Shown: piece after piece, positions 5,343-59,840 of the stretch
Numbering within the stretch: position 1 is the stretch's first letter
Layout: the number at the start of each line of letters is the position of its first letter
From: a virus
Lineage: Duplodnaviria > Caudoviricetes
IMG/VR virus record: IMGVR_UViG_3300006099_000008
Coordinates: 1,219 to 65,218 of that record
Strand: one strand, 5' to 3'
DNA length: 64,000 bases
The notes under the pieces: model-generated
The model's database searches: none
Seen by the model: only the letters and a program-made list of their open reading frames with translations
Told to the model about the DNA's origin: nothing
Translations under genes and position numbers: made by a program

Positions 5343-5369
5343 CGCAAAAAACGCATATTCTTTTATGAA
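5343..5369 (+). promoter_or_regulatory. phage-specific motif copy 1
   Basis: cgcaaaaaac gcatattctt ttatgaa. Confidence 0.7.
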
Positions 5370-5393
5370 AAAGAATTCAAAGGAGGAAACGAA

Positions 5394-5747
5394 ATGAGTA
5401 TTAGCAAAGTGAAATCATTTATAAGAAATAACAAGGAGAAAATCGCAATAGGAAGCGGGATCGTTATAGGAGGCGCGTTACTCGTGATTGCGCAAAGAAC
5501 AAACGGATTTTCAAAGGCAGCGTCATTTGCGGCTACAAAAAATTTGATTAAGGACTTAAATGTACCTGACGGATTTTTGGCTGGAAAGATTACTGAGCTT
5601 TGGGAAGAGGACGGTTGTGTGAACGCAATGGCGCGTAATTTAACAGCTAACGACCTTGGCAAGCTAGGCGAGGAATTTGTTAGAAATGGACTTGTATCTG
5701 ACGGAGCTGAGGCAGCAATAGTCGTTGAATTTTTAAAGAAATCTTAA
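5394..5747 (+). CDS. moron: small single-TM protein between terminase and portal
   Basis: AGGAGG RBS before ATG 5394; preceded by the CGC-N7-GCA-N7-TTATG motif and followed by a hairpin; IAIGSGIVIGGALLVIA hydrophobic stretch. Confidence 0.7.
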   Translation: MSISKVKSFIRNNKEKIAIGSGIVIGGALLVIAQRTNGFSKAASFAATKNLIKDLNVPDGFLAGKITELWEEDGCVNAMARNLTANDLGKLGEEFVRNGLVSDGAEAAIVVEFLKKS

Positions 5748-5758
5748 TCGAAAGGATT

Positions 5759-5785
5759 AGAGCCTTACAAAGGCTCTTTTCTTTT
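5759..5785 (+). terminator. intrinsic terminator of the moron
   Basis: agagcct-tacaa-aggctct followed by a T-run. Confidence 0.65.
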
Positions 5786-5809
5786 GCGGGAAAGGAGGAA
5801 TAATTCAAA

Positions 5810-7444
5810 ATGGAGTTATCAGTCAGTTCCAGGCTAAAGCACGCTTGGAACGCTTTTATGAACAAAGACCCAACAAAGTATTATGGGAACATTGGAGCCG
5901 GGTATTATTACAGGCCGGACAGGCCGAGGCTTACAAGGGGAAACGAGCGTTCAATCGTTACGTCGGTTTATAACCGAATTGCGCTGGACGCGGCGGCAAT
6001 AAACATACAGCATGTTCAGCTTGATGAAAACGACAGATTTTTATCCATAGTTGAGTCCGGATTTAACAACTGCCTTACAATGGAGGCCAATATAGACCAA
6101 ACGGCAAGGGCCTTTATTCAGGACGTGGTTATGTCTATGCTGGACGAAGGGTGCGTTGCCATTATACCAATTGACACAAGCCTAAATCCCGAGGTCACAG
6201 GCTCCTATGACATACTCACCATGAGGGCGGGAAAAATAATCGAATGGCACCCGCAGCATGTGAAAGCAAGGGTTTATAACGAAAAAACAGGGAACAAAGA
6301 GGACATACTTGTGCCCAAAGGCGTGGCGGCTATTATAGAAAATCCGCTTTACGCCGTTATAAACGAGCCTAATTCCACCATGCAAAGGCTTATACGAAAG
6401 CTAAACCTTTTGGACGCGGTGGACGAGCAAAGCAGCTCCGGAAAGCTGGATTTGATTATACAGCTTCCATATGTTATCAAATCGGAGGCAAGAAGACAGC
6501 AGGCGGAAAACAGAAGACGGGAAATGGAGGATCAGCTGGCGGGATCGAAATACGGCATTGCCTATGCCGATGGTACGGAAAGAATAACACAGCTTAACCG
6601 CCCTGTTGAGAACAATCTAATGAAGCAGATTGAATACCTGACGAGTATGCTTTACAGCCAGTTGGGGATCACTCAAAGCATATTAGATGGAACAGCAGAC
6701 GACAAAACTATGTTAAACTATTACAACCGCACGATTGAGCCTATTATTTCGGCCATAGTTGACGAGATGAAGCGAAAGTTCCTCACAAAAACGGCGAGAA
6801 GCCAAAAGAAGTCTATAATGTTCTTCCGCGATCCTTTCAAGCTGGTTCCCGTTGCGGAGCTGGCGGAGATTGCCGACAAGTTTACAAGAAACGAGATTGC
6901 AACTTCAAACGAAATGAGGCAGGCCATAGGCTGGAAGCCTTCCAAGGACCCGAGCGCCGACGAGCTTAGAAACAAGAACTTAAGCGCGCCTAAGGGAGAG
7001 GAAAATGCGCCGAAGGAAAAGGAAGAAGATGAAGACGACAGCCATTTGGAGCACCATGGCATAAAGGGACAAAAATGGGGCGTTAAGAACGGGCCGCCTT
7101 ATCCGATTGGAAGCGGCGGTGAAAAAGAGGTTGCGAAAAGCGGGAAAGGTGATACAATAAAATTAACTGGGCACAAAAGTCCATCTCTACATGGAACACC
7201 CAACACCGTAGTTGACCATTTATCAGATAATGGCGATGTTAAAGCTAGAGTTTTTTATGATAATTTAGGGCACAAAATAAACGAGATACATACTTCAGAT
7301 CACGGCCGTCCTAAGTATCATGATTTTGGAGAGCATGGCGAACATGCGCACGATTACGAATGGAACGAAAATGGTGAAATGATTGATAGAAGCCCGAGAG
7401 AAATTACTTCAAATGAACGAAAGGAGAATAAAGACATATTATGA
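5810..7444 (+). CDS. portal protein with C-terminal LEH-HGIKGQKWG leader plus His-rich toxin-like domain
   Basis: About aa 1-395 is HK97-type portal-like by position and sequence; then an acidic linker, the leader at aa 413-424, and a domain homologous to 33236..33700. Confidence 0.85.
   Translation: MELSVSSRLKHAWNAFMNKDPTKYYGNIGAGYYYRPDRPRLTRGNERSIVTSVYNRIALDAAAINIQHVQLDENDRFLSIVESGFNNCLTMEANIDQTARAFIQDVVMSMLDEGCVAIIPIDTSLNPEVTGSYDILTMRAGKIIEWHPQHVKARVYNEKTGNKEDILVPKGVAAIIENPLYAVINEPNSTMQRLIRKLNLLDAVDEQSSSGKLDLIIQLPYVIKSEARRQQAENRRREMEDQLAGSKYGIAYADGTERITQLNRPVENNLMKQIEYLTSMLYSQLGITQSILDGTADDKTMLNYYNRTIEPIISAIVDEMKRKFLTKTARSQKKSIMFFRDPFKLVPVAELAEIADKFTRNEIATSNEMRQAIGWKPSKDPSADELRNKNLSAPKGEENAPKEKEEDEDDSHLEHHGIKGQKWGVKNGPPYPIGSGGEKEVAKSGKGDTIKLTGHKSPSLHGTPNTVVDHLSDNGDVKARVFYDNLGHKINEIHTSDHGRPKYHDFGEHGEHAHDYEWNENGEMIDRSPREITSNERKENKDIL
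7131..7158 (+). promoter_or_regulatory. sigmaA-like promoter embedded in the portal-toxin linker
   Basis: TTGCGA-16-TACAAT with TGn. Confidence 0.5.
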
Positions 7445-7674
7445 ATGCAGATGAATTACGTCAAGAAATATCGTATGAGTATAATGATGTGAGTTTTTAT
7501 TATAATGGCAAACCATCGGGCATTTCGCCAGAAGTTCATAATTCCATACCAACTTTTTATGTGTGGTATGGCGATGAAGAAAAAGAATATTCTGATGTAA
7601 ATAAATTGATGTCGGATAAATTCTTTGACGGAAAATCGTTGGAAGAAATTGCTGATAAGGTCGACTATTTTTAG
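7441..7674 (+). CDS. probable cognate immunity protein of the portal-fused toxin
   Basis: ATGA overlap with the portal stop; homologous to 33697..33939 (ND..F.Y.G...G.......WYG.E...Y.D.......F..GKS). Confidence 0.65.
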   Translation: MNADELRQEISYEYNDVSFYYNGKPSGISPEVHNSIPTFYVWYGDEEKEYSDVNKLMSDKFFDGKSLEEIADKVDYF

Positions 7675-39503: not shown

Positions 39504-39509
39504 AGGGCA

Positions 39510-40098: not shown

Positions 40099-40113
40099 CA
40101 GAAGGAGGAAGAA

Positions 40114-40695: not shown

Positions 40696-40710
40696 GAAAC
40701 GGAGGTAAAA

Positions 40711-41897: not shown

Positions 41898-41916
41898 TTG
41901 CCGGAGGTGTATAAAC

Positions 41917-42450: not shown

Positions 42451-42464
42451 AAGGAGGTATATTT

Positions 42465-42566: not shown

Positions 42567-42568
42567 TT

Positions 42569-42733
42569 TTGAACGGGATTGAAAATATTATATCCATGCT
42601 TGACTATGTGCTTGATACAAAGCGGAAAAGGCATATTACAGGCGGCATTCTTTTGAGTGTTTCAATGTTGTTTGGAGGATTGGCGGTTACTGTAATAACA
42701 ATAAAGAACGAGGAGGATAGCTATGAGCGATAA
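42569..42733 (+). CDS. small TM protein
   Basis: GAAAGGAG RBS before TTG 42569. Confidence 0.5.
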   Translation: MNGIENIISMLDYVLDTKRKRHITGGILLSVSMLFGGLAVTVITIKNEEDSYER

Positions 42734-43298
42734 ACTAATAACGGTTGCAGCGCTTTTTGTTGGCGCGGCTATTGGGTCATTTATTACTTGGAAGTATGTC
42801 GGCAAAAAATACGATCAGATTATCCAGGAGGAAATTGATTCTGTGAAAGAGACGTTTTCTAAAAATAGAAATGCAGAATATGAAGAAATGGGCAAAGAAA
42901 TTTCAAAAGGAATTGAAGATGGTCTTGCAGAAAAAGATTCAGATTTAACATCTAAAATAAAAGATTATTCTGGAAGATTACAGAAGCAGAAGGAAAAATA
43001 TACAAATAATTCTAACTTCAATTCAGGAGCTCCGTACGTTATTACTCCAGAAGAATTTGGAGAATTTAACGATTATGAAAAATTCAGCTTAACTTATTAT
43101 GCCGATAAAGTTTTGGCAGATGAAAACGATGAGCTTATAGACGATGTTGAAGAAATTGTTGGTTTTGATTCTTTAAATCATTTTGGAGAATATGAGAACG
43201 ATTCAGTATTTGTTAGAAATGACGCGAAAAAGTGCGACTATGAAATACTGCTGGATCTAAGAAAGTATTCGGACGTCTATAAAAATATTCCGTATTAA
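42723..43298 (+). CDS. membrane-anchored hypothetical protein
   Basis: N-terminal TM, acidic C-terminal domain. Confidence 0.65.
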   Translation: MSDKLITVAALFVGAAIGSFITWKYVGKKYDQIIQEEIDSVKETFSKNRNAEYEEMGKEISKGIEDGLAEKDSDLTSKIKDYSGRLQKQKEKYTNNSNFNSGAPYVITPEEFGEFNDYEKFSLTYYADKVLADENDELIDDVEEIVGFDSLNHFGEYENDSVFVRNDAKKCDYEILLDLRKYSDVYKNIPY

Positions 43299-43309
43299 AT
43301 GGAGGCAAT

Positions 43310-43858
43310 ATGACAAAAAACAATTTGAAAAATGAGTATTTTAACTGGATATACGATTTTGTCTTCGATAAAAGATATTCCCAAAAGCTATCGTATAACA
43401 GACTTTTGCAAAAGCTTTATAGCATGGATTTTACATACGGCATTCCTATGGACGGCAATCGTGCCGAAGACGGAGTTGATCTAAGATACCGTTTTGGCGA
43501 GGAAAAAGAATATGATGATGCTGTAATTGCTGCGTATTTGGACGATTTCCCTTGCAGCGTTTTAGAAATGATGGTCGCTCTTGCCATAAGATGTGAGGAA
43601 CATATTATGGACGACCCTGAAATTGGGAACAGAACTGGCCAATGGTTTTGGAACATGATTGTTAATCTTGGATTGGGGATTATGAATGACTCAAATTTTG
43701 ATGAAGAATTTGTTGATGAAGTCATTAATAAATTCCTAAACAGAAAATATGAAAAAAACGGAAGAGGCGGTTTGTTTACTGTTAAAAACCACAGACGTGA
43801 TTTGCGTCAAGCCGAGATATGGTATCAAATGTGTTGGTATTTAGATGAGAACGCATAG
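43310..43858 (+). CDS. conserved phage hypothetical protein
   Basis: MDGNRAEDGVDLRYRF..CSVLEMMVALA..GGLF pattern. Confidence 0.65.
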   Translation: MTKNNLKNEYFNWIYDFVFDKRYSQKLSYNRLLQKLYSMDFTYGIPMDGNRAEDGVDLRYRFGEEKEYDDAVIAAYLDDFPCSVLEMMVALAIRCEEHIMDDPEIGNRTGQWFWNMIVNLGLGIMNDSNFDEEFVDEVINKFLNRKYEKNGRGGLFTVKNHRRDLRQAEIWYQMCWYLDENA

Positions 43859-43879
43859 AAGGAGGCGAATAAAATTGCA

Positions 43880-46800
43880 ATGATTGACTTTTTAATGATT
43901 GCAACGCGCAGTACAAAGCGCGGCATAATAGAAGTCTATCCAAAGTTTATTATCAAAAAAAGCTCTGATCTGATGATTAGGGGTGGTGATTTTTATGCCA
44001 TATGGATTGAAGAACGGGGCTTATGGTCTACCGACGAACAAGACGCTTTACAGATAATAGATAGTGAGCTTGATAAATATGCGGAAGAAAACCGGCTGAG
44101 CTTTAGCTCTGATATTAGAGTGCTGCACATGTGGGACGCCGAATCAGGCATGATTGACTCGTGGCATAAATATTGTCAGAAGCAATTGAGAGATTCATTT
44201 CATGCGCTTGACGATAAACTTATATTTTCTAATATGAAAACTAATAAAAAAGACTACGCCAGCAAAAGGTTGAACTATCCACTGGAAGCTGGCGATTTGT
44301 CTGCCTATGATAAGCTCATGTCAACTTTATATTCGGAGGAAGAACGACATAAAATTGAATGGGCAATTGGTTCCATTGTTTCTGGAGACTCTAAAAAATT
44401 ACAGAAATTCATGGTTTTTTATGGCGCGGCCGGAACGGGAAAGTCTACAGTAATAAATATCATTCAACAGTTATTTGACGGATATTACTCGGTGTTTGAC
44501 GCAAAGAATCTCGGCTCATCTAATAATTCATTTGCATTAGAAGCGTTCAGAGGCAATCCGCTTGTGGCAATTCAGCATGACGGAGACTTGTCCCGAATTG
44601 AAGACAATACAAGGCTTAACAGCTTGGTTTCCCACGAGTTGATGACTGTGAATGAAAAATTTAAGTCTACGTATTCCAACCGGTTTAAATGCTTTTTGTT
44701 CATGGGAACAAATAAACCGGTAAAGATTACGGACGCAAAATCGGGTCTTATACGAAGGCTGATTGACGTTACGCCGTCTGGAAATAAATTAAATCCAAAG
44801 GAATACAAAGCAACCGTAAAACAAATTAGTTTTGAGCTTGGTGCAATAGCTTATCATTGCAGGGAAGTATATTTGAATGATCCAGGTAAATATGACAATT
44901 ATATTCCTATAGCAATGCTTGGGGCTTCTAATGATTTTTACAATTTTGTGATGGACTCTTACCACGTGTTCAAGAAGGAAGACGGCACAAGCTTAGAAGC
45001 CGCTTGGAAGATGTATAATGCTTATTGTGAAGAGGCGAAGGTTAAAGTTCCGTTTCAAAAGAGGATTTTTAAAGAGGAGCTTAAGAATTACTTTAGTGAT
45101 TGTCAAAGACGCATTAGTTTGAATGACGGCTCCAGGGTGAGAAGCTATTACACAGGATTCCGGTTTGATAAATTTGGAGAAAATATAATTGGAGAAACAG
45201 AGGGAAAAGAGGAAAGCGGCGTTCAATGGCTTCAATTTAGCAGTACAGATTCTCTATTTGATTTAAAATGCGGAAGCTGTGCCGCGCAATATGCTACAGC
45301 TAAAGAAACGCCGCTAAAAAAATGGAGCGATGTTAAGACAAAATTGGCGGAACTGGATACGTCGAAAGTTCACTATGTCAGGGTTCCTGAAAATCACATT
45401 GTGATAGATTTCGATGTTACAGACGAAAACGGAAATAAATCTCTTGAGAAAAATATTGAGGAAGCCAATAAGTGGCCGGAAACTTATGCGGAGCTTAGCA
45501 AAAGCGGAAATGGAATACATCTTCATTATATTTATACAGGCGACGTTTCTAAACTAAGTCGTGTGTATGACGACAGCATAGAAGTTAAGATATTTACGGG
45601 CAACAGTTCCTTGAGACGAAAACTATCCAAATGCAATAATTTACCTATTGCGACAATAAGCTCCGGTTTGCCGCTGAAAGGAGAAAATAAAATGGTGAAT
45701 TTTGAAGCGATAAAGAGCGAGAAAGGGCTTAGAACGCTGATTAAACGTAATTTGAATAAAGAAATACACCCGGCCACTAAGCCCAGCGTTGACTTTATTT
45801 ATAAAATATTGGAAGATGCATATTCAAGCGGGCTGAATTATGATGTTACGGATATGCGCAACGCTGTATTGGCATTTGCGGCAAACAGCACGCATCAGGC
45901 CGACTACTGTATTAAGCTTGTAAATAAAATGCAGTTTAAGTCGCCGGATATATCAGCAGCGAAGAAAAACGATGACGCTAAATTAGTATTTTATGACGTT
46001 GAGGTATTTCCGAACTTATTTCTTGTAAACTGGAAAATCGAAGGCGAAGGCAAGCCGGTTGTGCGTATGATTAATCCGTCTCCAAACGAAATTGAGGATA
46101 TAATGCGCTTTAGGCTGGTTGGTTTTAACTGCCGCAGATATGACAATCATATTTTGTACGCAAGAATGATTGGCTATACAAACGAACAGCTATATAATCT
46201 TTCTCAGAAAATTATAAATGGGAGCGCTAACTGTTTCTTTGGTGAAGCTTACAATGTTTCTTATACGGACGTATATGATTTTTCCAGCAAAAAGCAATCT
46301 CTTAAAAAATTTGAGATTGAGCTTGGTATTCATCATCAGGAGCTGGGGCTTCCATGGGATCAGCCAGTGCCTGAAGAAATGTGGACAAAGGTGGCCGAAT
46401 ACTGTGACAACGATGTCATCGCAACGGAGGCGGTATTTAGCAATAGAAAGGCTGATTTTACTGCAAGACAGATACTGGCCGATGTGGCTGGAATGACAGT
46501 AAATGATACCACAAATACTCTTACCACAAGAATTATATTTGGAGGAAATAAGAAGCCTCAATCTCAGTTTAATTATCGTGATATGGGAGATATTTCGCTT
46601 AAACACCACACCGGAAATAACTTATATGATCCTGAATTTACAATATTTACAGAAGAAAATAAGCCGATATTCCCGGGATATGTGTTTGAAAACGGAAAAT
46701 CAATATACAGGGGCGAAGAGGTTGGGGAAGGCGGATATGTATATTCTGAACCCGGCATGTACAGCAATATTGCGTTGCTGGATATAGCTTCCATGCACCC

Positions 46801-47836
46801 CAGCAGTATTGTTGCTGAGAATTTGTTCGGAGATGAATACACGCAAAGATTCAAAGAAATTCTTGATGCACGTATTGCCATTAAACATAAGGATTTTGAT
46901 AAGGCGCGAAGTATGCTTGGCGGAGCCTTGGCAAAATATTTGACAGATGAGGAGGCGGCCGCTGATTTGGCGCAGGCTTTGAAAATTGCCATTAATTCGG
47001 TTTACGGTTTGACGTCAGCTAATTTCGAAAATCCATTTCGTGACAATCGCAACAAAGACAATATTGTCGCAAAACGTGGGGCGCTTTTTATGATAAATCT
47101 CAGGCATGAAGTTCAAAGCCGAGGCTTTACTGTTGCCCACATTAAAACCGACTCGATTAAAATTCCAAATGCTACACCGGAGATTATCCAGTTTGTTATG
47201 GATTACGGAAAAGAGTACGGCTACACATTTGAACATGAAGCTACGTATGACAGAATGTGCCTTGTCAACGATGCCGTTTACATTGCCAAGTATAAAGACG
47301 GTAAACATGCCGGCGAATGGACAGCAACGGGAACTCAGTTTCAGGTTCCTTATGTATTCAAGAAATTATTTAGTGGTGAAGAAATTATATTTGAGGATAT
47401 GTGCGAAACCAAATCAGTCAGCAGCGCTTTGTATCTTGACATGAACGAGGGTCTTCCTGATGTATCGGAATATGAAAAGGAATTGACGAAAGCCGAGAAC
47501 GACTACAAAAAAGGTCTGTTGTCTGATATATCTTTTGAACAAATATGTTCTAATGTATCAAAGGAGATTGAAAAAGGTCACAGCTATCGCTTTATCGGAA
47601 AAGTCGGTCGGTTTTGTCCGATCAAAGAAGGCTGCGGCGGGGGTTTACTTATGCGCGAGAAAGACGGAAAGTATTATGCCGCAACCGGTTCAAAGGGATA
47701 TAGATGGCGAGAGGCTGAAATGGTTAGGGAGTTAGGAAAGGAAAGTGATATAGACAGATCATATTACAACAAACTTGTTGATGAAGCCGTCGAAACTATA
47801 TCGCAGTATGGAGACTTTGAATGGTTTGTTTCGTAA
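43880..47836 (+). CDS. fused SF3 helicase - AEP primase - 3'-5' exonuclease - family B DNA polymerase
   Basis: GAAGTGKST Walker A; IDFD and SKSGNGIHLHY primase motifs; FYDVE, GFN..YD and YCDNDV exonuclease motifs; DIASMHPS, KIAINSVYG and HIKTDS polymerase motifs. Confidence 0.85.
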   Translation: MIDFLMIATRSTKRGIIEVYPKFIIKKSSDLMIRGGDFYAIWIEERGLWSTDEQDALQIIDSELDKYAEENRLSFSSDIRVLHMWDAESGMIDSWHKYCQKQLRDSFHALDDKLIFSNMKTNKKDYASKRLNYPLEAGDLSAYDKLMSTLYSEEERHKIEWAIGSIVSGDSKKLQKFMVFYGAAGTGKSTVINIIQQLFDGYYSVFDAKNLGSSNNSFALEAFRGNPLVAIQHDGDLSRIEDNTRLNSLVSHELMTVNEKFKSTYSNRFKCFLFMGTNKPVKITDAKSGLIRRLIDVTPSGNKLNPKEYKATVKQISFELGAIAYHCREVYLNDPGKYDNYIPIAMLGASNDFYNFVMDSYHVFKKEDGTSLEAAWKMYNAYCEEAKVKVPFQKRIFKEELKNYFSDCQRRISLNDGSRVRSYYTGFRFDKFGENIIGETEGKEESGVQWLQFSSTDSLFDLKCGSCAAQYATAKETPLKKWSDVKTKLAELDTSKVHYVRVPENHIVIDFDVTDENGNKSLEKNIEEANKWPETYAELSKSGNGIHLHYIYTGDVSKLSRVYDDSIEVKIFTGNSSLRRKLSKCNNLPIATISSGLPLKGENKMVNFEAIKSEKGLRTLIKRNLNKEIHPATKPSVDFIYKILEDAYSSGLNYDVTDMRNAVLAFAANSTHQADYCIKLVNKMQFKSPDISAAKKNDDAKLVFYDVEVFPNLFLVNWKIEGEGKPVVRMINPSPNEIEDIMRFRLVGFNCRRYDNHILYARMIGYTNEQLYNLSQKIINGSANCFFGEAYNVSYTDVYDFSSKKQSLKKFEIELGIHHQELGLPWDQPVPEEMWTKVAEYCDNDVIATEAVFSNRKADFTARQILADVAGMTVNDTTNTLTTRIIFGGNKKPQSQFNYRDMGDISLKHHTGNNLYDPEFTIFTEENKPIFPGYVFENGKSIYRGEEVGEGGYVYSEPGMYSNIALLDIASMHPSSIVAENLFGDEYTQRFKEILDARIAIKHKDFDKARSMLGGALAKYLTDEEAAADLAQALKIAINSVYGLTSANFENPFRDNRNKDNIVAKRGALFMINLRHEVQSRGFTVAHIKTDSIKIPNATPEIIQFVMDYGKEYGYTFEHEATYDRMCLVNDAVYIAKYKDGKHAGEWTATGTQFQVPYVFKKLFSGEEIIFEDMCETKSVSSALYLDMNEGLPDVSEYEKELTKAENDYKKGLLSDISFEQICSNVSKEIEKGHSYRFIGKVGRFCPIKEGCGGGLLMREKDGKYYAATGSKGYRWREAEMVRELGKESDIDRSYYNKLVDEAVETISQYGDFEWFVS

Positions 47837-47889
47837 AATTTAACCCAACAAGGTCTCTTTATTTATTTTATTAGAAGGGAGAATTTACC

Positions 47890-48372
47890 ATGCCTTACAA
47901 CAATATTAATAACATTATCATCGAAAACGCTCATATAATTTTTAGGAATTTCAGAGGCGAAGAATCTAAGTACAACAGAGCTGGCAGCCGGAATTTTTGC
48001 GTGATTATTGAAGACAGCGAGGAAGCTCAAAGGCTGGCCGAAGACGGCTGGAATATAAGAATACTGGCGCCGAGAGACGAAAACGATGAACCTAGACATT
48101 ATATTCAGGTTGCCGTAAGCTTTTCGAATATTCCGCCGAAAGTTTATATGATAACAAGAAAGGTTAAAACCGCTCTTGACGAAGAGTCAATTGGAACGCT
48201 GGATTTTGCGGAGATTAGAAACGTCGATTTAACAATACGCCCATATAATTGGGAAGTAAACGGAAAAACCGGGGTTAAGGCTTATTTGAAAACAATGTAC
48301 GTTACCATCGAAGAAGATGAATTTGCGGCTAAGTATGCCGAACAGGAAGGCCCTGAAGAGATTCCGTTTTAA
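47890..48372 (+). CDS. ssb: single-stranded DNA-binding protein
   Basis: FRNFRG..YN..G.RNF OB-fold pattern with acidic tail ending EEIPF. Confidence 0.75.
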
Positions 48373-48447
48373 GAAGGACAAGGCAGAAAGCTCTGATTAT
48401 TATTCATGATAATTGGAGCTTTTTTTTATTTAGAAAAGGAGAAAATT

Positions 48448-49173
48448 ATGAAAAAAGATTGTCAAAAAGAATTTATGAAAATTTTTAATCAGCTTGCTTA
48501 TAAGTATAACCGATACGATGTTTGGAGAGATTTTGTTACAACTTTTGCCTGTTCTATCTCAAATTCTTTAGATAAATGTCACTATGAAGAAAGAGAGAAA
48601 CGTTACTTAAAAATTATCGGAAAGTATGAAAAAACAGAGCAAAATATATTTCCGGAACTTGCTGCTCGAACTGTCATAGCCTTGGAAGAAAATCAAGATC
48701 AGGATTTTTTGGGTGATATTTTTATGATGCTTAACCTTGGGAACAATGTGACTGGACAATTTTTTACGCCATATCATATTTGCAGGCTTATGGCTATGAC
48801 TACATTGGGTAATATTTGTAAACAAATTAGAGAAAAAGGTTTTGTAACTATAAATGATCCTTGCTGCGGTGCCGGAGCAATTTTAATAGCGGCAATTAAT
48901 GAAGCGCGAAAACAACTGAAAAAAGAAAATCTCAACTTTCAGAATAGCATATTTTTGGCGGCTCAGGATATAGATGAAACCGTAGTTCTTATGTGTTATA
49001 TTCAGCTATCTCTCCTGGGCATAGCTTGATTTGTAAAGGTTGGAAGTTCGCTATTTGATCCGATTATACAGAACGATAAATTAGATAATTATTGGTTTAC
49101 GCCTATGTATTTTTCTGATATTTGGGTTATGAGAAGAATTTTTGACGAGGTGACGTCTATTGGCCGGAATTGA
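48448..49173 (+). pseudogene. N6-methyltransferase-like gene interrupted by an in-frame TGA at 49027
   Basis: GQFFTPYHI, DPCCGAG, AQDID motifs; the same frame continues FVKVGSSL..WFTPMYF to TGA 49171-49173. Confidence 0.6.
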
Positions 49174-50392
49174 ACTATATGATTACCAATTAGAAGCTGT
49201 GAAAAAAATGAAAAGCGGCTGTATACTTTGCGGAGGAGTGGGAAGTGGAAAATCACGAACGGCGTTAGCGTATTATTATATTTGCGAAGGAGGAAGCCTG
49301 GGAACGGAAAATTACACGACAATGAATGATCCGCCAAAAGATTTATACATAATTACAACAGCGAGAAAACGTGATACTTTGGAGTGGGAGGGAGAACTTT
49401 CGCCCTTCCTTCTTTCTACGAACAAAGAAGTTAATTTATATTTTAATAACGTGGTTGTTGACTCATGGAACAACATTGGAAAATATACGGATATTAAAAA
49501 GGCATTCTTTATATTCGATGAACAGCGGGTTATTGGCTCTGGAGCCTGGGTAAAGTCTTTCCTTAAAATATGTAAATCTAACCATTGGATTTTACTTTCG
49601 GCTACTCCGGGAGACACTTGGCAGGATTATATTCCTGTGTTTCTGGCAAATGGCTTTTATAAGAATAGAAGCGAATTTACAAGGGAACATATCGTTTACA
49701 GCCGCTTCAGCAAATTTCCTAAAGTCGAAAGATATTTGAACACCGGGCGTTTAATACGTTTGCGAAATTCTATTTTAGTTGATATGGACTTTAACCGGAA
49801 AACAATATCCCACCATGAAGATATTTTTGTAGGATATGACACTGATAAATATAAAAAAATCACTAAAAACCGTTGGGATATTTGGAAAGATTGTCCGATT
49901 ACTAACGCCGGAGAACTCTGCTATGCGCTGCGCAAGGCGGTTAATTCAGACGAATCAAGATTAGTGGCTGCTATGGAGATTTTTGAAAAGCGTCACAAAA
50001 TTATTATATTCTATAATTTCGATTACGAATTAGAGTTGCTTAAAAGCGCCTGCTGGCCATTTGACGGCATTAATATTGTAGAAGTTGCCGAATGGAATGG
50101 TCACAAACATCAGCCGGTACCTGATGGGAACTGCTGGATATATTTAGTTCAATACAACGCCGGCGCCGAAGGGTGGAACTGTGTTAAGACTGATACAATT
50201 ATATTTTACTCACAGAACTACAGCTATAAAATTATGGCGCAAGCTTCCGGAAGAATAGACAGGCTTAATACGCCGTATACAGATTTATATTATTATCATT
50301 TAAAAAGCAGAGCCGGTATCGATCTTGCTATTGGAAAAGCGTTGTCTGCTAAAAAGAATTTTAATGAGGGGAGGTTTGTGAGATGGGATTGA
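49160..50392 (+). CDS. SF2 (SNF2-like) helicase
   Basis: GSGKS, FDEQ, LSATP, AGAEGWN, QASGRIDR motifs. Confidence 0.85.
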   Translation: MAGIELYDYQLEAVKKMKSGCILCGGVGSGKSRTALAYYYICEGGSLGTENYTTMNDPPKDLYIITTARKRDTLEWEGELSPFLLSTNKEVNLYFNNVVVDSWNNIGKYTDIKKAFFIFDEQRVIGSGAWVKSFLKICKSNHWILLSATPGDTWQDYIPVFLANGFYKNRSEFTREHIVYSRFSKFPKVERYLNTGRLIRLRNSILVDMDFNRKTISHHEDIFVGYDTDKYKKITKNRWDIWKDCPITNAGELCYALRKAVNSDESRLVAAMEIFEKRHKIIIFYNFDYELELLKSACWPFDGINIVEVAEWNGHKHQPVPDGNCWIYLVQYNAGAEGWNCVKTDTIIFYSQNYSYKIMAQASGRIDRLNTPYTDLYYYHLKSRAGIDLAIGKALSAKKNFNEGRFVRWD

Positions 50393-50429
50393 TTTTTGGC
50401 TCCTTATTTTCATCTTCAAAAGACTTTTA

Positions 50430-50456
50430 CGCAAAAAACACATAGACTTTTATGAG
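50430..50456 (+). promoter_or_regulatory. phage-specific motif copy 11
   Basis: cgcaaaaaac acatagactt ttatgag. Confidence 0.75.
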
Positions 50457-50492
50457 GAATGTAATAAAGTGTTTTAAAGAAGGAGGAATAAT

Positions 50493-50744
50493 ATGATTGA
50501 TTTAAAACTATTATCGGAAGTGCCAGACGACCAGTTAGAGGTTATTGAAAAAAGCATAGCAGCATGGATAAGAGCAGGCAAACCAAAAATATTGGGATTA
50601 ACGGTAGAAGCGAATACCAATGAGACAATCGCAGTATTTGCCTTAATTGCTGTTGCTTCAGTAGCATGGGGATTTGCAACTGGTTATATTTCTGATAGAT
50701 TTGTAGAACGTCATAGAAGGATCAAAAGAAATACAAAAGCATGA
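50493..50744 (+). CDS. small TM protein (cassette)
   Basis: Motif at 50430, AAGGAGG RBS, hairpin after the stop. Confidence 0.6.
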   Translation: MIDLKLLSEVPDDQLEVIEKSIAAWIRAGKPKILGLTVEANTNETIAVFALIAVASVAWGFATGYISDRFVERHRRIKRNTKA

Positions 50745-50864
50745 GACCAAGAATTGAGCCAGGTAATGGCTCTTTTCTTTTTTTATATGTAGATTAATGA
50801 AAGATGTTTCAGGAGGTGAACTAAAATAGAAATAAATAGCAAAGATATTATAAAAAGAGCAAAT

Positions 50865-51350
50865 ATGATAAAGAAATTTTATTTAGATATAGATAATCCA
50901 AAGGGAGGATTATATCATTATGGCGTTAAAGGTATGAAGTGGGGTGTTAGGAGGACGCCAGAACAGTTGGGGCATTTAAAATGTACAGTTGATAAATCAA
51001 AAGAACATAGTATAATGTCAAATGAGACCGTGTTAAGCAAGAAAGGCTTTATGATAAATGGCAGTAAAATTGTTGATTTTTTATTGAAACCAAAGGCTAA
51101 GCATTCACATGAATTTTTTAATGTTGGCTATACACCACAAGACAGCAGGAGGCTTTTTGAAGACATAGAGAAAGGCTATGATTTATCAAAGGCCACCGAT
51201 GTTGTCAAAATAAACGATATAGAAAAGTTTAGCATTTTTATGAATTTGGGAATAACTTCAAAAAGGCCTTTTAGAACAGTATGGCAAATTGATGGGCAAA
51301 ATTCAAAACCAAGATTAATCACAGCTCATAGGGAGGATAAAAATGTTTAA
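50865..51350 (+). CDS. LYH-YGVKGMKWG leader plus DUF6883-like toxin domain
   Basis: Leader, then KIVDFLL...KHSHEFF.VGY and FRTVWQID...PRLITAH. Confidence 0.7.
   Translation: MIKKFYLDIDNPKGGLYHYGVKGMKWGVRRTPEQLGHLKCTVDKSKEHSIMSNETVLSKKGFMINGSKIVDFLLKPKAKHSHEFFNVGYTPQDSRRLFEDIEKGYDLSKATDVVKINDIEKFSIFMNLGITSKRPFRTVWQIDGQNSKPRLITAHREDKNV
50989..51016 (+). promoter_or_regulatory. sigmaA-like promoter embedded in the toxin linker
   Basis: TTGATA-16-TATAAT. Confidence 0.55.
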
Positions 51351-55219: not shown

Positions 55220-55273
55220 GAGTTGAGATTAAAAATCTGGGCTCTTTTTGAACAGCAACAGCATAATAAAACA

Positions 55274-55300
55274 CGCGAGAAAAACATGCTCTATTATGGA
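55274..55300 (+). promoter_or_regulatory. phage-specific motif copy 12
   Basis: cgcgagaaaa acatgctcta ttatgga. Confidence 0.75.
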
Positions 55301-55316
55301 AAGGAGGTTGAGAATT

Positions 55317-55508
55317 ATGAAAGAACTTAAGGCTAAAAACGCTAAACAGCTGGATATTTGTTTGAGAATGCTGTATGCCGAAAGAGTAATATTTATTGTA
55401 AGAGTTATAGAAAACTCAAATCAAAAAATAGAATACAGAATCAACGTACATGCTGATGAACAAAAATTTGAAATGCTTGAAGAGCGTTACAGAATTCTAA
55501 TTTCATAA
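55317..55508 (+). CDS. small protein A (cassette)
   Basis: Motif at 55274 and AAAGGAGG RBS; paralogue of 56464..56655. Confidence 0.65.
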   Translation: MKELKAKNAKQLDICLRMLYAERVIFIVRVIENSNQKIEYRINVHADEQKFEMLEERYRILIS

Positions 55509-55593
55509 CAAACTATCAAAAGGTAAAAGGGCTTAACAGGTCCTTTTACTCTTTTATCAAATATGCTATAATATTTAAAAAGGAGGGTTTTTC

Positions 55594-55803
55594 GTGAAAA
55601 CAATACACTTTGATGGTTGCGAACCATATAGAAAAAAAGACGGAACATGGGATATAAGACGTTATTCCTATGAAGAAGAATATCCAGACGACCGAATACG
55701 ACATTGCGACATGTGTACGGTATGTGGTTTTCCCGCTTATCCTGAATGCACTAAGACGTGTAATAACGGGGCACTTGATCCTGACAGAAAGGCCGTTAAA
55801 TAA
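55594..55803 (+). CDS. small Cys-rich protein B
   Basis: TTTACT-16-TATAAT promoter; paralogue of 56741..56956. Confidence 0.6.
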   Translation: MKTIHFDGCEPYRKKDGTWDIRRYSYEEEYPDDRIRHCDMCTVCGFPAYPECTKTCNNGALDPDRKAVK

Positions 55804-56033
55804 TGAGAATGGAAATTGTTATTAAAACTACTGAAAGCTGAGATTAAAAATCTTGGCTTTTTATTTTTCTAAGGAGGAAGAAGAAATGAAAGAAAATAAG
55901 AAAAACATAGGAAATGAAAAATTAAAAAAAGCACCGCGTATAAGACTTGAACAAGAAATACAAAAAGAAATTCTTGCCTTTATTAACAAAAAATAATATA
56001 ATTGAGCCAGAACACTCATGAAGAAGGTAAAAA

Positions 56034-56342
56034 ATGAATTTGTTTGATGAAATTTACGATAAATATAAAGGTTCTGGCTTTGAATTTACTTATAAAAATA
56101 AAAAATTAAGTGGATCTAAAACTATATTTAAAAAAGACGTCATTAAAATTGATCAATCAAAACGTAATAATGATGAGATACCGATGTTTATAAAATGTGA
56201 AAACTGTAATAATTATATGGATTTTAAAGTTGGTAAAAATGATAATCTTGATGGGAAATGGGTTTGTCCGTCATGTTCGAGCGAAGTTAAAGAACGGAGT
56301 GTTTATGTTAAGTTAAATAACGAGAACGGAAATTATTATTAA
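56034..56342 (+). CDS. zinc-ribbon protein
   Basis: CENC...CPSC. Confidence 0.55.
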   Translation: MNLFDEIYDKYKGSGFEFTYKNKKLSGSKTIFKKDVIKIDQSKRNNDEIPMFIKCENCNNYMDFKVGKNDNLDGKWVCPSCSSEVKERSVYVKLNNENGNYY

Positions 56343-56420
56343 AAAGCATAAACAATAACTGAAAGCTGGCTGAGATTAAAAATCTCGGCTTTTTTTGAAC
56401 AGTAATAACGATAATAAATA

Positions 56421-56447
56421 CGCTAAAAAAACATGCTCTATTATGGA
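56421..56447 (+). promoter_or_regulatory. phage-specific motif copy 13
   Basis: cgctaaaaaa acatgctcta ttatgga. Confidence 0.75.
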
Positions 56448-56463
56448 AAGGAGGTTGAGAATT

Positions 56464-56655
56464 ATGAATAGTTTTTTAGCAAGAAACGATAAGCAGCTTG
56501 GCATTTGTTTAAGAATGCTGTATGCAGATGGATTTCAAGGAGTTGTTGAAACTGTAAAAAATGATAAAAACAAAATTGAATTTCATATTAGCATAGATTC
56601 TGATGAACAAACATTTAGGCTACTTGAAGAACGCTATGAAACCTTGATTTCGTAA
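56464..56655 (+). CDS. small protein A' (cassette)
   Basis: Motif at 56421; QL.ICLRMLYA..LEERY..LIS shared with A. Confidence 0.65.
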   Translation: MNSFLARNDKQLGICLRMLYADGFQGVVETVKNDKNKIEFHISIDSDEQTFRLLEERYETLIS

Positions 56656-56740
56656 TTGATTTTTCAACGGTAAAAGGCTGTTAAACACAGTCTTTTACTT
56701 TTATATTTTATATGCTATAATCAACTAAAGGAGTGGTAGC

Positions 56741-56956
56741 GTGAAAGTTAAATCAAGAATGGCTTGTCCAGTAAGGCAGAAAGACGGCTCATGGAAAGTT
56801 ATTACAAAGGAGTTTGAAGAGGATATTCCGGATTTAGGAAGACACAGATTAATATGTAATAAGTGTGGATTTTCTTCTTATCCTGCTTGTAAAGAATGGT
56901 GCCCCGTTGAACAAAGTACATTGGCCAAGGAAAAAGAAAAATCGACTGAAAGCTGA
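56741..56956 (+). CDS. small Cys-rich protein B'
   Basis: KDG.W and C..CG...YP.C shared with B. Confidence 0.6.
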   Translation: MKVKSRMACPVRQKDGSWKVITKEFEEDIPDLGRHRLICNKCGFSSYPACKEWCPVEQSTLAKEKEKSTES

Positions 56957-56998
56957 GATTAAAAATCTTGGCTTTTTATTTTTTAGGAGGAAAAGGAA

Positions 56999-57325
56999 AT
57001 GACAATTAACGAATACCAAAGCTTAGCTTTGAGAACGGCAAATCCAAGTGGTGAAAATCTGTCTAATATAGGTCTAGGCATAGCCGGAGAGGCCGGAGAA
57101 GCAGCCGATTTAATTAAAAAGCATCTGCATCAAGGCCATGATTTGGATAAAAATCATTTGGCAAAGGAATTTGGAGACGTAGCCTGGTATATAGCTGTAG
57201 GCTGTTATATTATCGGCTACGATTTAGAAACAGTGCTAAAAATGAATATTGACAAATTGAAGGAGCGGTATCCAGACGGATTCGATTCGGAACACAGTAT
57301 TGATCGAAAAACAAATGATATTTGA
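56999..57325 (+). CDS. MazG-like nucleoside triphosphate pyrophosphohydrolase
   Basis: LGIAGEAGE..DLIKK..EFGDVAWY..NIDKL..RYP. Confidence 0.85.
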   Translation: MTINEYQSLALRTANPSGENLSNIGLGIAGEAGEAADLIKKHLHQGHDLDKNHLAKEFGDVAWYIAVGCYIIGYDLETVLKMNIDKLKERYPDGFDSEHSIDRKTNDI

Positions 57326-58028: not shown

Positions 58029-58074
58029 TCATTGATTTTAAAATGTTAAGGCAATAACGAGAGGTGAGTTATAT

Positions 58075-58281
58075 TTGGCGTTAAAAGTTAAAAACTTAAA
58101 GAAAAACACCGAAGGATATTTTGATCCAACTGCCTATGAGGCTATTAGAAATGTGGATAAAGAAAGCATAAAATTTCACAGACTTCTTGAAACCATATTT
58201 TATATTTGCGATATAGCAGGATTTAAAATCGAAGAGCGTATTGTTGTTAGAAATAAGAAAACCGGAAGGATTTGGAGGTGA
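58075..58281 (+). CDS. hypothetical protein
   Basis: KNTEGYFDPTAYEAI..GF.IEERIV pattern. Confidence 0.55.
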   Translation: MALKVKNLKKNTEGYFDPTAYEAIRNVDKESIKFHRLLETIFYICDIAGFKIEERIVVRNKKTGRIWR

Positions 58282-58365
58282 GTAACTTGACTATATTCAT
58301 ATTTAGTGTTAGAATTTAAAAATGATCAAAAGTATTTTATGAGCTAAAATTGTGAGGCGAAAACT

Positions 58366-59415
58366 GTGATAGATGAGAATTTATTTCAGAATATAAAAGA
58401 AAACGGTGATTTTGAAATATTACCTTGCAACACTATTGCTGATAAAACAGGACTTACAAAATTGGAACTTACTTCGGCGCAAAAGATACAAGTAAGCGCT
58501 TTGTTGCAGCAATTGCCATTAATAGCAGCTTCGGGAACAATGGCCCAAGCATATTCCGTAAGCTTCTACAGAGGAATGCCTCATACGCTAATGCAGCTTA
58601 AAAATGGCGGAGTTGGCAGTCCAATTATAGGCGGCGACGGACGGATTGCGGGAAGCGCCGTATTTAATCCTATGACCACTCAGGCCGCTGTTTTGGGCGT
58701 GTTTAGCGTTATGTCTATTGCTTCTGGACAATATTTTCTGTCACAGATTAACAACGAACTTAAAATGATGAAACTGAATGTTGACAAAATTCTTGAGTTT
58801 CTTTATGGCGACAAAAAGGCGGAGCTTATATCGGAGGTGAGTTTTGCTCAATATGCCTATAAAAACTATAGCTCTATTATGGAGCATGATGAGCAGCGGG
58901 TGGCCACTATAATAGGGCTTCAAAAAGCAAGAAAGGTTGCAATGAAAGATGTTGAGTTTTATATTAGTGATTTAGACTCTGCTGTTAATTCTAAAGCAAA
59001 TTCAGATATAGTGTCCTTGGTTGATAAAGCTTTTCAAATAAAGGAGTGTCTTGAAATATCAACACAGCTTTATATTATGAGCGGCTTGATGGAAGTTTAT
59101 TATGCTCAGAATTATGACGATAATTATATTTCCTATATTAAGGAAGATATGGTTTCTTATATAAGCAAATGCGAAAAACGTATGCTTAGTGATTTTAGTA
59201 TGCTAAGCGGTCAGATACATGGCTTAAAAGAAAAACCTTTGAAAAAAATTGATAAGCCTGCTCTTGAAAAGAAAGTGGATTGTGTTGTTGAGATGCTTAG
59301 CGGAAATTCGGAATCTGAGCTGAGAAAGTCATTAAAAAAAGCATTACCGTACTCAGGCACAAAGAGCGAATATTATCTTGACAAAGCCGGAGATGCATAC
59401 TTGAAAGCTTCATAA
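58366..59415 (+). CDS. 349-aa accessory protein of unknown function
   Basis: Long ORF; hydrophobic hairpin followed by a helical domain. Confidence 0.65.
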   Translation: MIDENLFQNIKENGDFEILPCNTIADKTGLTKLELTSAQKIQVSALLQQLPLIAASGTMAQAYSVSFYRGMPHTLMQLKNGGVGSPIIGGDGRIAGSAVFNPMTTQAAVLGVFSVMSIASGQYFLSQINNELKMMKLNVDKILEFLYGDKKAELISEVSFAQYAYKNYSSIMEHDEQRVATIIGLQKARKVAMKDVEFYISDLDSAVNSKANSDIVSLVDKAFQIKECLEISTQLYIMSGLMEVYYAQNYDDNYISYIKEDMVSYISKCEKRMLSDFSMLSGQIHGLKEKPLKKIDKPALEKKVDCVVEMLSGNSESELRKSLKKALPYSGTKSEYYLDKAGDAYLKAS

Positions 59416-59449
59416 GAGTACAATTTTAGTCTGCATTTTTAATAAATTG

Positions 59450-59760
59450 CGGGCTATTTTTCTGGCCATTTTTGTGATATAAAAGTGGCCAACGCCCACT
59501 TTTAAAATTTTTTCATCAAATTTTTGAAGGATTTTCTTTGCTTGTACGGACAATTTTAATGATTTTAGGCCAATTTTGTGGCCAACTGGCCACTTTCTGC
59601 CCACTTTTAAAATCAAAAGTGGCCACGAAAAACCCAGTATTTATGCGGGTTTGCGGGCTTTCTGGCCACTTTCCCACTTTTTTTACTATTTAATTGTGAT
59701 AAAAAGTTTATATATTTATAATAATATAGCAAATAAAAGTGGCCAACTGGCCACAAGCAC
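59450..59760. repeat. non-coding iteron-like cluster (AAAAGTGGCCA / TGGCCACTTT), candidate replication origin
   Basis: Several direct and inverted copies around an AT-rich stretch at ~59690-59735. Confidence 0.6.
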
Positions 59761-59813
59761 AAAAATGTTGTTTTTTACAAGTTTTGAGATAGACGTTTAA
59801 ACTATTTTAGCCA

Positions 59814-59840
59814 CGCGAAAAATACATAGACTTTTATGAA
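59814..59840 (+). promoter_or_regulatory. phage-specific motif copy 14 (upstream of the nuclease-RNAP operon)
   Basis: cgcgaaaaat acatagactt ttatgaa. Confidence 0.75.

Follow-up and report, generated by a model that had tools for sequence, protein, structure and literature searches.

A rigid signal of 28 bases, which this mouse-gut phage genome repeats 14 times ahead of its non-structural genes, is very probably a promoter. We think it likely that this promoter is read by the putative single-chain two-barrel RNA polymerase of the phage itself and not by the host sigma-A holoenzyme, the phage enzyme being the most likely reader because motif and enzyme occur jointly in phages whose bacterial hosts differ widely. 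All positions refer to the window, which is the whole stretch of 64,000 nt that was analysed.

Motif Sequence and Placement

Exact matches to CGC-N7-ACA-N7-TTATG numbered 11 in the 64,000-nt window, all on the plus strand, against 0.05 expected from shuffles. Allowing one mismatch added the three other sites named in the sequence-only reading, at 5343 (GCA for ACA), 36265 (TTACG) and 39510 (TAATG), together with three unrelated matches at 14391, 32152 (minus strand) and 47654. When a 30-nt weight matrix trained on the 14 sites was scored over the window, the sites reached 30.4-37.4 bits and the next best position 15.4 bits, so that all 14 plus-strand copies of that reading were recovered. No further copies were detected on the minus strand of the window or in the 1218 genome bases outside it. 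The spacing of the blocks is invariant in 14 of 14 copies, just as had been claimed, and the architecture is indeed fixed; the description as three blocks proved to be a simplification, since the information content reveals four conserved blocks, namely CGC(G), an A/T tract, (A)ACA and CT-N-TWATG, and then an obligatory purine run. Across 411 unique sites, purines account for at least 99% of the bases at positions +2 to +4 past the G of TTATG, which fits the expectation for a transcription start region. The copies at 55274 and 56421 are not independent, as both lie within a tandem duplicated module. A paper describing this motif was not found in the literature searched.

With 11% of the window being non-coding (coding fraction 0.89), 12 of the 14 copies lie entirely between genes, and two overlap the final codons of the upstream ORF: copy 2 (31555-31579) covers the 3' end of ORF 31263-31580, 22 nt 5' of ATG 31602, and copy 4 (35225-35249) the last codons of ORF 35020-35235, 28 nt 5' of ATG 35278. 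The earlier statement that most copies are followed by an RBS is borne out by the distance from the end of TTATG to a start codon with an RBS, which is 18-44 nt in 12 copies and 79 and 87 nt in the other two. Copies 3 (32903-32927), 7 (37073-37097), 8 (37862-37886) and 10 (39510-39534) precede ATG 32958, 37134, 37923 and 39579 by 30, 36, 36 and 44 nt, respectively, and copy 11 (50430-50454) lies 3' of a helicase gene and 38 nt 5' of ATG 50493; for copy 6 (36265-36289), which is followed by a palindrome, the next ATG is 87 nt downstream. The neighbour of copy 8 is a divergent minus-strand HTH gene (37420-37770) with its own sigma-A-like promoter.

Four copies follow right behind terminator-like hairpins, as copies do likewise in relatives. 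Copy 5 (35704-35728) stands immediately 3' of a hairpin and T-run and 31 nt 5' of ATG 35760, copy 9 (38166-38190) 9 nt 3' of the terminator at 38140-38157, copy 12 (55274-55298) 3' of a hairpin and T-run, and copy 13 (56421-56445), the duplicate of the copy-12 module, 3' of the terminator at 56368-56390; the RBS begins 3 nt past TTATG at copy 9 and 4 nt past it at copy 12. The head-tail region contains a single copy, copy 1 (5343-5367; 34.0 bits), in agreement with the claim that the head-tail genes lack the motif apart from the moron at 5394. Between terminase and portal, this copy forms the promoter-like part of a cassette that stands alone; it lies 26 nt 5' of ATG 5394, which opens a plus-strand, moron-like gene of 117 aa without a family match (5394-5747), followed by an intrinsic-terminator-like hairpin on the same strand (5759-5777). 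Both the copies behind terminators and this promoter-gene-terminator cassette imply that fresh initiation is needed at those places. The units end in ordinary hairpin and T-run terminators, a kind known to act on host RNA polymerase, which speaks against the phage enzyme as reader.

The invariable location on the sense strand, shortly 5' of an RBS, would also suit a motif that works at the RNA level in polycistronic transcripts, whether by directing processing, by stabilising a 5' end or by enhancing translation. We regard such a role as extremely improbable, since secondary structure is no greater than in shuffles (mean z +0.09 over the 14 copies), copies occur downstream of terminators and in the insulated cassette, and the start codon lies anywhere from 18 to 87 nt away.

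Copy 14 (59814-59838), with the top score of 37.4 bits, lies in front of the polymerase operon, as had been noted before. On the plus strand, the operon begins with a RuvC-like endonuclease (59918-60208; phrog_93) and continues with an exonuclease (60180-60737; phrog_3953, E 5e-84) and a 917-aa homologue of two-barrel RNA polymerases, flanked by HTHs, which is our candidate for reading the motif (60741-63494; phrog_4291, E = 0). The position of copy 14 is kept in relatives, in prophages and in Arthrobacter phage Arcadia, and upstream of the operon in 10 relatives the flanks are unalignable while the motif and the presumed first transcribed bases are conserved. With the polymerase gene setting the orientation, the motif matched 109 times on the plus and 0 times on the minus strand in 1.28 Mb of relatives. 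A sigma-A-like site at 59694-59722 is present in only some relatives, and a conserved host-type promoter for the polymerase operon was not found among the relatives compared. The metatranscriptome contigs checked for starts were thin and of a kind unable to show them. The motif is conserved, asymmetric, repeated, co-oriented with genes and located just upstream of them, as is characteristic of promoters specific to a phage-encoded RNA polymerase.

The Polymerase Homologue and Its Family

ORF 60741-63494 is predicted to be a two-barrel (double-psi beta-barrel) RNA polymerase with HTH modules, on the basis of its modelled fold and its DxDGD metal-binding loop. The loop, ADFDGD, occupies residues 520-525 of the 917-aa protein, and none of D521, D523, G524 and D525 varies among 66 diverse homologues with 47-59% identity. 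The protein model (pLDDT 86.9) matched QDE-1, the non-virion RNAP of P23-45/P74-26 and RDR2 at a probability of 1.00, with QDE-1 at E 1e-8, P74-26 gp62 and gp64 of the P23-45 group at E 4e-6 to 7e-6, then RDR2 and, after these, beta-prime subunits. HTH modules are located at the N- and C-terminus, the C-terminal one weakly matching sigma-70 region 4 models. The suggested pairing of three blocks with three HTHs is putative: the protein does have three HTH recognition helices, conserved between phyla, but additional helical modules are seen in the model, and the conserved blocks of the motif number four.

The family comprises more than 1000 clusters (50% identity) at E <= 1e-30, including prophages of common gut Lachnospiraceae and hundreds of isolated actinophages. 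In the searchable literature it appears only as "putative RNA polymerase / HTH protein", and no promoter or biochemical report was found there. The N-terminal leader of the polymerase, HYG...SGRYPWGSG, is disordered yet invariant; it resembles the HYG-x-KG-x-KWG leader of the portal C-terminal extension and of two toxin-like proteins of the same phage. The homologue in Lactococcus phage 1706 is annotated as a structural protein.

Distribution of the Motif and Its Probable Reader

Arthrobacter phage Arcadia and Lactococcus phage 1706 both encode a homologue of the 917-aa DFDGD protein. Arcadia, whose host belongs to a different phylum, displays the same motif architecture at the same position ahead of the polymerase operon, with a polymerase 51% identical, and phage 1706, with a polymerase 40% identical, carries a motif variant with an altered upstream block. 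Among the IMG/VR matches listed, the polymerase gene was found in 65 of 91 records with a strict motif match and in 31 of the 33 that are at least 90% complete. Of the two exceptions, one contig stops 560 nt past an operon-type copy, being cut at the polymerase operon, and the other is an unrelated provirus with a single chance match. The proposed co-occurrence of motif and DFDGD gene was thereby borne out, and, among the complete genomes listed, the motif was not common in phages lacking the polymerase. In five lysogen genomes (22 Mb), 34 of 44 motif matches fell within prophages, and the 10 outside equal the count for a reversed-pattern control (10). Motif and polymerase gene therefore co-occur, and the motif is not present in host DNA beyond control level, within carriers of one lineage. 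This co-occurrence is confounded by shared ancestry, as all carriers form one phage lineage sharing many other genes, and the motif tracks that lineage as much as the polymerase. Of the earlier claim that these are promoters read by the phage RNAP, co-occurrence, absence from host DNA and the lack of a sigma-A fit stand in favour; the reading enzyme itself is one that we infer.

Sigma-70 promoters consist of a -35 TTGACA and a -10 TATAAT, 16-18 bp apart, with a start about 7 nt past the -10. A plain sigma-70/sigma-A promoter was rejected: no conserved -35 lies 16-18 bp upstream, and the commonest 3' hexamer of the window copies, TTTTAT, has no A at position 2. At 38166, 55274 and 56421, moreover, the RBS follows 3-4 nt past TTATG, so that a start about 7 nt past the -10 would cut it. 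Geometry, hexamer and RBS distance all uphold the earlier remark that the motif does not match sigma-A.

A subtler involvement of the host enzyme is that a phage factor redirects host RNA polymerase in the style of T4 middle promoters, with TWAT(A/T)T as the -10 and, in place of the -35 contact, the CGCG...TACA box bound by a phage protein that may be the 917-aa protein itself, through its HTH modules. In actinophages, the 3' block of the motif is a perfect TATAAT, the universal -10 hexamer; the distance from CGCG to the hexamer would place the box at about -30, the units close with host-type intrinsic terminators, and the weak sigma-70 region 4 matches of the C-terminal HTH would suit such a contact. 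We nevertheless consider this arrangement fairly unlikely, because most window copies read TTTTAT and miss the essential A at -10 position 2, because a start about 7 nt downstream would land in the RBS at the three copies just named, and because the motif is nearly unchanged between phages of Actinobacteria and Firmicutes hosts. The DFDGD catalytic core, invariant in the 66 diverse homologues, also argues from sequence that the 917-aa protein polymerises.

Another role to be weighed is that of an operator for a phage regulator, the candidates being the tyrosine recombinase (30285-31193) or the minus-strand HTH protein (37420-37770). A precedent is SPBRE of SPbeta, a 15-bp repeated element through which the recombinase-like master repressor MrpR binds at some ten promoters (PMC10516654), and like the motif it is a multi-copy asymmetric element ahead of early transcription units (about ten of them) in a temperate Firmicutes phage. 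The temperate mouse-gut phage encodes an integrase and has relatives among prophages, and copy 37862 adjoins the promoter of the candidate repressor. SPBRE, however, is a repressor site overlapping host-type promoters, whereas no other promoter was found beside the 14 copies, and the motif, which is asymmetric, always points the same way as the genes and leads into the obligatory purine run. It is, moreover, not confined to temperate phages with a recombinase-like repressor: the same motif stands in the same places in Arthrobacter phages of cluster AM, a lytic group with neither integrase nor repressor in its record. The presence in lytic actinophages without an integrase weakens the operator reading, which we judge very unlikely.

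Comparison with Known Phage Transcription Systems

T7/T3/SP6-class promoters are rigid and asymmetric, with an upstream recognition part, an AT-rich melting part with a TATA-like end and a G-purine start; they occur in many copies per genome, and their variants track polymerase divergence. The motif resembles them in being a rigid signal (~23-28 bp in all) of the same layout, in many copies and with variants following the polymerase. It differs in that their Pol-I-like fold is unrelated to the two-barrel fold and in that it would serve non-structural, not late, genes.

Thermus phage P23-45 possesses a gp96 virion RNAP with an AT-rich motif and a gp64 non-virion RNAP with a GC-rich motif, the motif-enzyme link having been established by ChIP-seq, cappable-seq and enzyme assays (PMC10770324). 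Both systems combine a phage single-chain two-barrel enzyme with its own multi-copy motif before early genes, presence and absence covarying among relatives, and the 917-aa protein finds some of its best structural matches in gp64 and the P74-26 homologue of gp64. In contrast, the motif sequences are unrelated, we infer the motif-enzyme link in the mouse-gut phage, the 917-aa enzyme has HTH modules at both termini, and its family extends over phages of Firmicutes and Actinobacteria, many of them temperate. The late promoter consensus of the phiKZ non-virion multisubunit RNAP is (-3)TATG(+1) (PMC7618050), and here, too, a two-barrel-type enzyme goes with a TATG element overlapping the start, an overlap that is putative for our motif. 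The phiKZ consensus comprises 4-5 bp without upstream blocks, and its multisubunit enzyme has a separate sigma-like subunit; the TATG resemblance could be a coincidence. YonO of Bacillus prophage SPbeta (PMC5467207) is likewise a single-chain two-barrel RNA polymerase encoded by a Firmicutes prophage; it gave no sequence match to the 917-aa protein at E 1e-5 in the phage collection, and, in contrast to the YonO system, the mouse-gut phage has 14 motif copies, which avoid the head-tail genes.

Proposed Mechanism and Implications

With the phage polymerase as reader, the 14 copies would act as promoters of non-structural (early/middle) transcription units. The upstream half (CGCG, A/T tract, TACA; about -24 to -12) would be recognised as duplex and bound by the HTH modules of the polymerase, the downstream half CT-N-TWAT would melt, and RNA would begin with the invariant G of TTATG or a base adjoining it and run on into the purines, giving leaders of ~20-45 nt, RBS included. 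Copy 5343 would drive the insulated moron-like cassette inside the late region and copy 59814 the endonuclease-exonuclease-polymerase operon, by which the enzyme would renew its own supply, as the earlier suggestion of positive autoregulation has it. Since no strong plus-strand terminator follows this operon, its transcript may extend into late genes across the joined genome ends. A prophage at induction starts without the polymerase, which is a difficulty for the phage enzyme as reader.

More tentatively, and with some doubt on our part, the polymerase may be a virion passenger, injected with the DNA and firing the motifs as immediate-early promoters without a host factor, by means of its built-in sigma-like HTH modules. 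If true, this would constitute a self-contained transcription system of ~100 kDa, unchanged across hosts of different phyla.

A defined candidate promoter makes the polymerase directly testable by run-off transcription, reporters and start mapping in cultured lysogens. If confirmed, the system would explain early gene expression in hosts as unlike as Arthrobacter and Lachnospiraceae and would account for expression despite a large G+C mismatch with actinobacterial hosts. The two-barrel polymerases would gain a promoter-specific single-chain member, and a compact orthogonal transcription module would be at hand for Gram-positive and gut bacteria.

Genome organization

The window spans bases 1219-65218 of an IMG/VR virus record (65,218 bp) that is rated complete, and mouse gut metagenomes contain nearly identical DNA. 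The plus strand carries nearly every gene: the terminase (3518-5263) is followed by the portal, a gene in which protease and capsid are fused, the gene of a 2857-aa tape measure protein, and then tail and lysis genes that extend to roughly 29600, with a terminator (29621-29642) behind them. The tyrosine integrase (30285-31193) is followed by a stretch of roughly 30 kb occupied by small genes and by genes for replication, the latter including a DNA primase-polymerase (43880-47836) and a helicase (49160-50392), and the right end carries the polymerase operon, namely a RuvC-like endonuclease (59918-60208), an exonuclease (60180-60737) and a 917-aa protein with the sequence ADFDGD (60741-63494), here called the polymerase. 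The G+C content is 33-37% in the non-structural half, compared with 42-50% in the structural half, and no nucleotide match to 43000-50500 was found among isolated phages. The clearest minus-strand gene of the window (37420-37770) encodes a 116-aa protein with a weak, repressor-like HTH, a candidate lysogeny repressor.

Architecture and placement of the motif

Exact CGC-N7-ACA-N7-TTATG was matched 11 times in the window, only on the plus strand, where 0.05 matches were expected, and permitting one mismatch recovered the three further sites listed in the sequence-only reading (5343, with GCA for ACA; 36265, with TTACG; 39510, with TAATG). Scored with a 30-nt weight matrix built from these 14 sites, they reached 30-37 bits and the best other window position 15, so that the claimed fourteen strictly spaced copies were recovered in full; the remaining 1218 bases of the genome outside the window held none. 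The extended consensus is approximately (Y)N-CGCG-AAAAWW-ACA-N4-CT-N-TTATG-RRR, with at least 99% purine at the three bases 3' of the G (411 unique sites in 2.36 Mb of relatives). The picture of three blocks one helical turn apart is a fair one but simplified, CT-N-TTATG-RRR being a single long 3' block.

Despite a coding density of 0.89, 12 of the 14 copies are entirely intergenic and two touch only the final codons of the preceding ORF. A start codon preceded by an RBS follows the 3' end of the motif after 18-44 nt in 12 copies, and after 79 and 87 nt in two, and the genes concerned are mainly small and of unknown function, in agreement with the initial impression that most copies precede an RBS and a small gene. 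The copies are spread over the non-structural half of the genome, apart from one in a cassette within the late region; the head-tail genes themselves have none, as had also been noticed at first reading. That cassette, between terminase and portal, consists of copy 5343, a 117-aa gene (5394-5747) and a hairpin (5759-5777), and by its layout would be a complete inserted promoter-gene-terminator cassette.

Copies 55274 and 56421 belong to one tandemly duplicated module (55220-57000: terminator, motif, 63-aa gene, gene of about 70 aa, terminator), which shows putative promoter-gene-terminator cassettes being duplicated as units. Contigs from a DNA run link 33130, just past the terminator 33102-33125, either to 36654 or to 35700, which lies 4 nt 5' of copy 35704; with short joint sides of only 22-26 nt, these give a weak hint that strains differ by entire cassettes with terminators and motif copies at their boundaries. 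Directly 3' of copy 36265, a near-perfect palindrome centred on GAGCTC (36290-36320) is followed by a sigma-A-like site (36315-36343), a region that may encode a small RNA or act in regulation.

Evidence for a promoter and against a host signal

Terminator-like hairpins with T-runs directly precede copies 35704, 38166, 55274 and 56421 and, in many relatives, also the polymerase-operon copy, so a transcript from upstream would have stopped before reaching them. When the region upstream of the polymerase operon was compared among ten relatives, the flanks could not be aligned and the motif and the following dozen bases were almost invariant. Among relatives taken in the orientation of their polymerase gene (1.28 Mb), 109 matrix matches lay on the sense strand and 0 on the opposite one. 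The motif does not fold into an RNA structure (mean z +0.09), and this disfavours an element acting at the RNA level. The motif is thus very probably a promoter. An operator for a phage regulator, best modelled by the SPBRE/MrpR system (PMC10516654), would be a quite improbable alternative, and the presence of the motif also in lytic phages counts against an operator of that type. Two mouse-gut metatranscriptome runs contain 7-9% of the sequence words; over 31000-50999 their reads form short contigs of depth 2-6, in which starts, ends and strand are unreadable and DNA carry-over is possible.

As for the kind of promoter, the initial statement that the motif does not match the sigma-A -35/-10 elements held up, and a sigma-A promoter was rejected on three grounds: the copies checked have no conserved -35 element 16-18 bp 5' of a TWAT(A/T)T hexamer; TTTTAT, the commonest hexamer of the window copies, has no A at position 2; and the RBS starts 3-4 nt past TTATG in three copies, so that a start about 7 nt beyond a -10 would delete it. 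A sigma-A scan gave counts just modestly over those of shuffles and no site at a fixed offset from the copies. Host-type promoters are present in the genome but unlike the motif. One of them, TTGACT-17-TATAAT (37840-37812), is the strongest sigma-A match of its region; it stands before the minus-strand HTH gene and divergent from copy 37862. In five bacterial genomes with related prophages (22 Mb), 34 of 44 pattern matches fell within the prophages, in the orientation of the polymerase gene, the last about 0.9 kb 5' of that gene; the 10 outside equal the reversed-pattern control count, so the motif is not a signal of a host regulon.

Around copy 59814, which precedes the polymerase operon, further sequences were observed. 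Between a 349-aa gene without family (58366-59415) and this copy, 260 bp of non-coding DNA (59483-59744) contain seven copies of AAGTGG(C/G)C in both orientations, with 2.7 expected window-wide, flanking a sigma-A-like TTGTGA-17-TATAAT (59694-59722). The cluster was found in only some relatives (the window, L038 and L086) and could represent origin iterons, or operator sites at a promoter from which the host enzyme would transcribe the polymerase operon. Behind the copy (59838-59890), GAAGAGAGRGG ... CATTCTCTTTT and a T-run are kept in ten relatives (L009-L086), and attenuator-like pairing is possible. An attenuator (GAAGAGAGAGG ... CTCTCTTTT plus T-run) was rejected, its fold being no better than shuffles (z -1.1); the alignment of the ten relatives gave 7 pairs with zero compensatory changes, and the leader is best regarded simply as conserved sequence.

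The predicted RNA polymerase and its co-occurrence with the motif

The 917-aa protein is a member of PHROG 4291 (E = 0). In a preprint, this family is presented as a "putative RNA polymerase" of RdRP-like type with flanking HTHs, and as the marker of a supercluster made up of actinophages, Lactococcus 1706-like phages and Faecalibacterium phages; the preprint text nowhere mentions a promoter. Since a sequence search of solved structures gave only chance-level HTH matches, a fold search was needed. With an AlphaFold model based on an alignment of 66 diverse homologues (pLDDT 86.9, pTM 0.79), it returned QDE-1, the P23-45/P74-26 non-virion RNAP and plant RDR2 at probability 1.00, then beta-prime subunits. 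Residues D521, D523, G524 and D525 are invariant in the 66 homologues, and the recognition helices of the HTHs, two N-terminal and one C-terminal, are conserved across the window phage, Arcadia and 1706. The protein is a predicted RNA polymerase.

The motif architecture recurs alongside other homologues. Arthrobacter phage Arcadia (45% G+C), syntenic with the window and with a polymerase 51% identical, has CGCG-TAAAW-TACA-NGGG-CTATAAT(G/A) before its post-tail small genes and again before the RuvC-exonuclease-polymerase operon. Lactococcus phage 1706 (polymerase 40% identical) carries 12 sense-strand copies of [C/G]CACAWG-TTTTACA-N4-CTATAGTAG, the spacing unchanged and the upstream block altered. 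When IMG/VR was scanned with the strict 14-base motif and 91 distinct records among the matches listed were tested, 65 encoded the polymerase, with identities as low as 47-55% in some of them. As to whether the motif is common in phages lacking the gene, 31 of the 33 listed records at least 90% complete had it, the exceptions being G002, whose contig ends 560 nt past an operon-type copy with about the length of the operon missing (its weak polymerase match is a 162-aa ORF adjoining the terminase), and G072, an unrelated provirus with a single GC-rich chance match and no lineage genes.

Other apparent counter-examples were likewise set aside: G061 and G094 are single GC-rich chance matches without lineage genes, G070 ends 3.9 kb past the DNA polymerase gene, short of the operon, and the contig of G026 looks scrambled, its DNA polymerase and capsid genes being truncated. 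The lineage DNA polymerase was found in 8 of the first 10 polymerase-negative records, at least five of which stop too early after that gene to include the operon. In one record, G006, which is 51% complete, the polymerase gene is missing from some 29 kb of downstream sequence. The motif carriers all belong to a single lineage, and their co-occurrence with the gene therefore does not count as several independent events. Altogether, the motif is probably read by the phage's own predicted polymerase. Close relatives (L216-L265; polymerase identity 76-85%) are prophages of cultured Lachnospiraceae and relatives. Two belong to Cuneatibacter caecimuris from the mouse caecum, and others to [Ruminococcus] torques ATCC 27756, Hungatella hathewayi and Clostridium leptum DSM 753; such bacteria are likely hosts and usable lysogens.

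Proposed mode of action and comparison with known systems

The promoter would consist of a recognition part, an AT-rich part ending in TAT, and a G followed by purines, with the start placed at the G of TTATG or at most one base away. In size and layout the motif is similar to T7-class promoters, and its TATG start element recalls (-3)TATG(+1), the promoter consensus of the phiKZ non-virion polymerase (PMC7618050). From the polymerase gene to the end of the genome, and in the first kilobases, no strong plus-strand terminator was found. Transcription initiated at 59814 may therefore, speculatively, run across the joined ends and reach the late genes, in the way that the lambda late transcript crosses cos.

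Two observations hint that the polymerase travels in the virion. GenBank lists the 1706 homologue (orf75) as a structural protein, and the N-terminus of the polymerase, disordered in the model yet with invariant H11, G13, S18-G19-R20, G24 and G26, resembles the HYG-x-KG-x-KWG leader of the portal C-terminal extension and of two toxin-like proteins. The leader, L-x-H-[HY]-G-x-K-G-x-K-W-G, occurs in four proteins, at 7050-7100 (portal residue ~415), 33299, 50915 and, as HYG-x5-G-R-Y-P-W-G-S-G, at 60770 in the polymerase, and suggests a common packaging or cleavage signal of virion cargo. Delivery in the virion combined with HTH-mediated, factor-independent recognition is a tentative proposal that we consider somewhat doubtful. 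If the polymerase does travel in this way, the motif copies would be immediate-early promoters; a prophage would still require a host-read route to the polymerase, and no conserved one was found upstream of the operon in the aligned relatives.

The nearest parallel known in detail is Thermus phage P23-45, which has two single-chain two-barrel polymerases with a separate motif each, the pairs having been established via ChIP-seq, cappable-seq and presence or absence among relatives (PMC10770324). YonO of SPbeta differs in serving a single late operon from a single start, its promoter being undefined (PMC5467207). In papers on Arthrobacter, Microbacterium and Rhodococcus phages, and likewise in the preprint on the supercluster, we found neither the motif nor promoters of the family described, and no other paper describing the motif was found. 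The motif can reasonably be taken as the likely promoter set of a phage-encoded predicted RNA polymerase.
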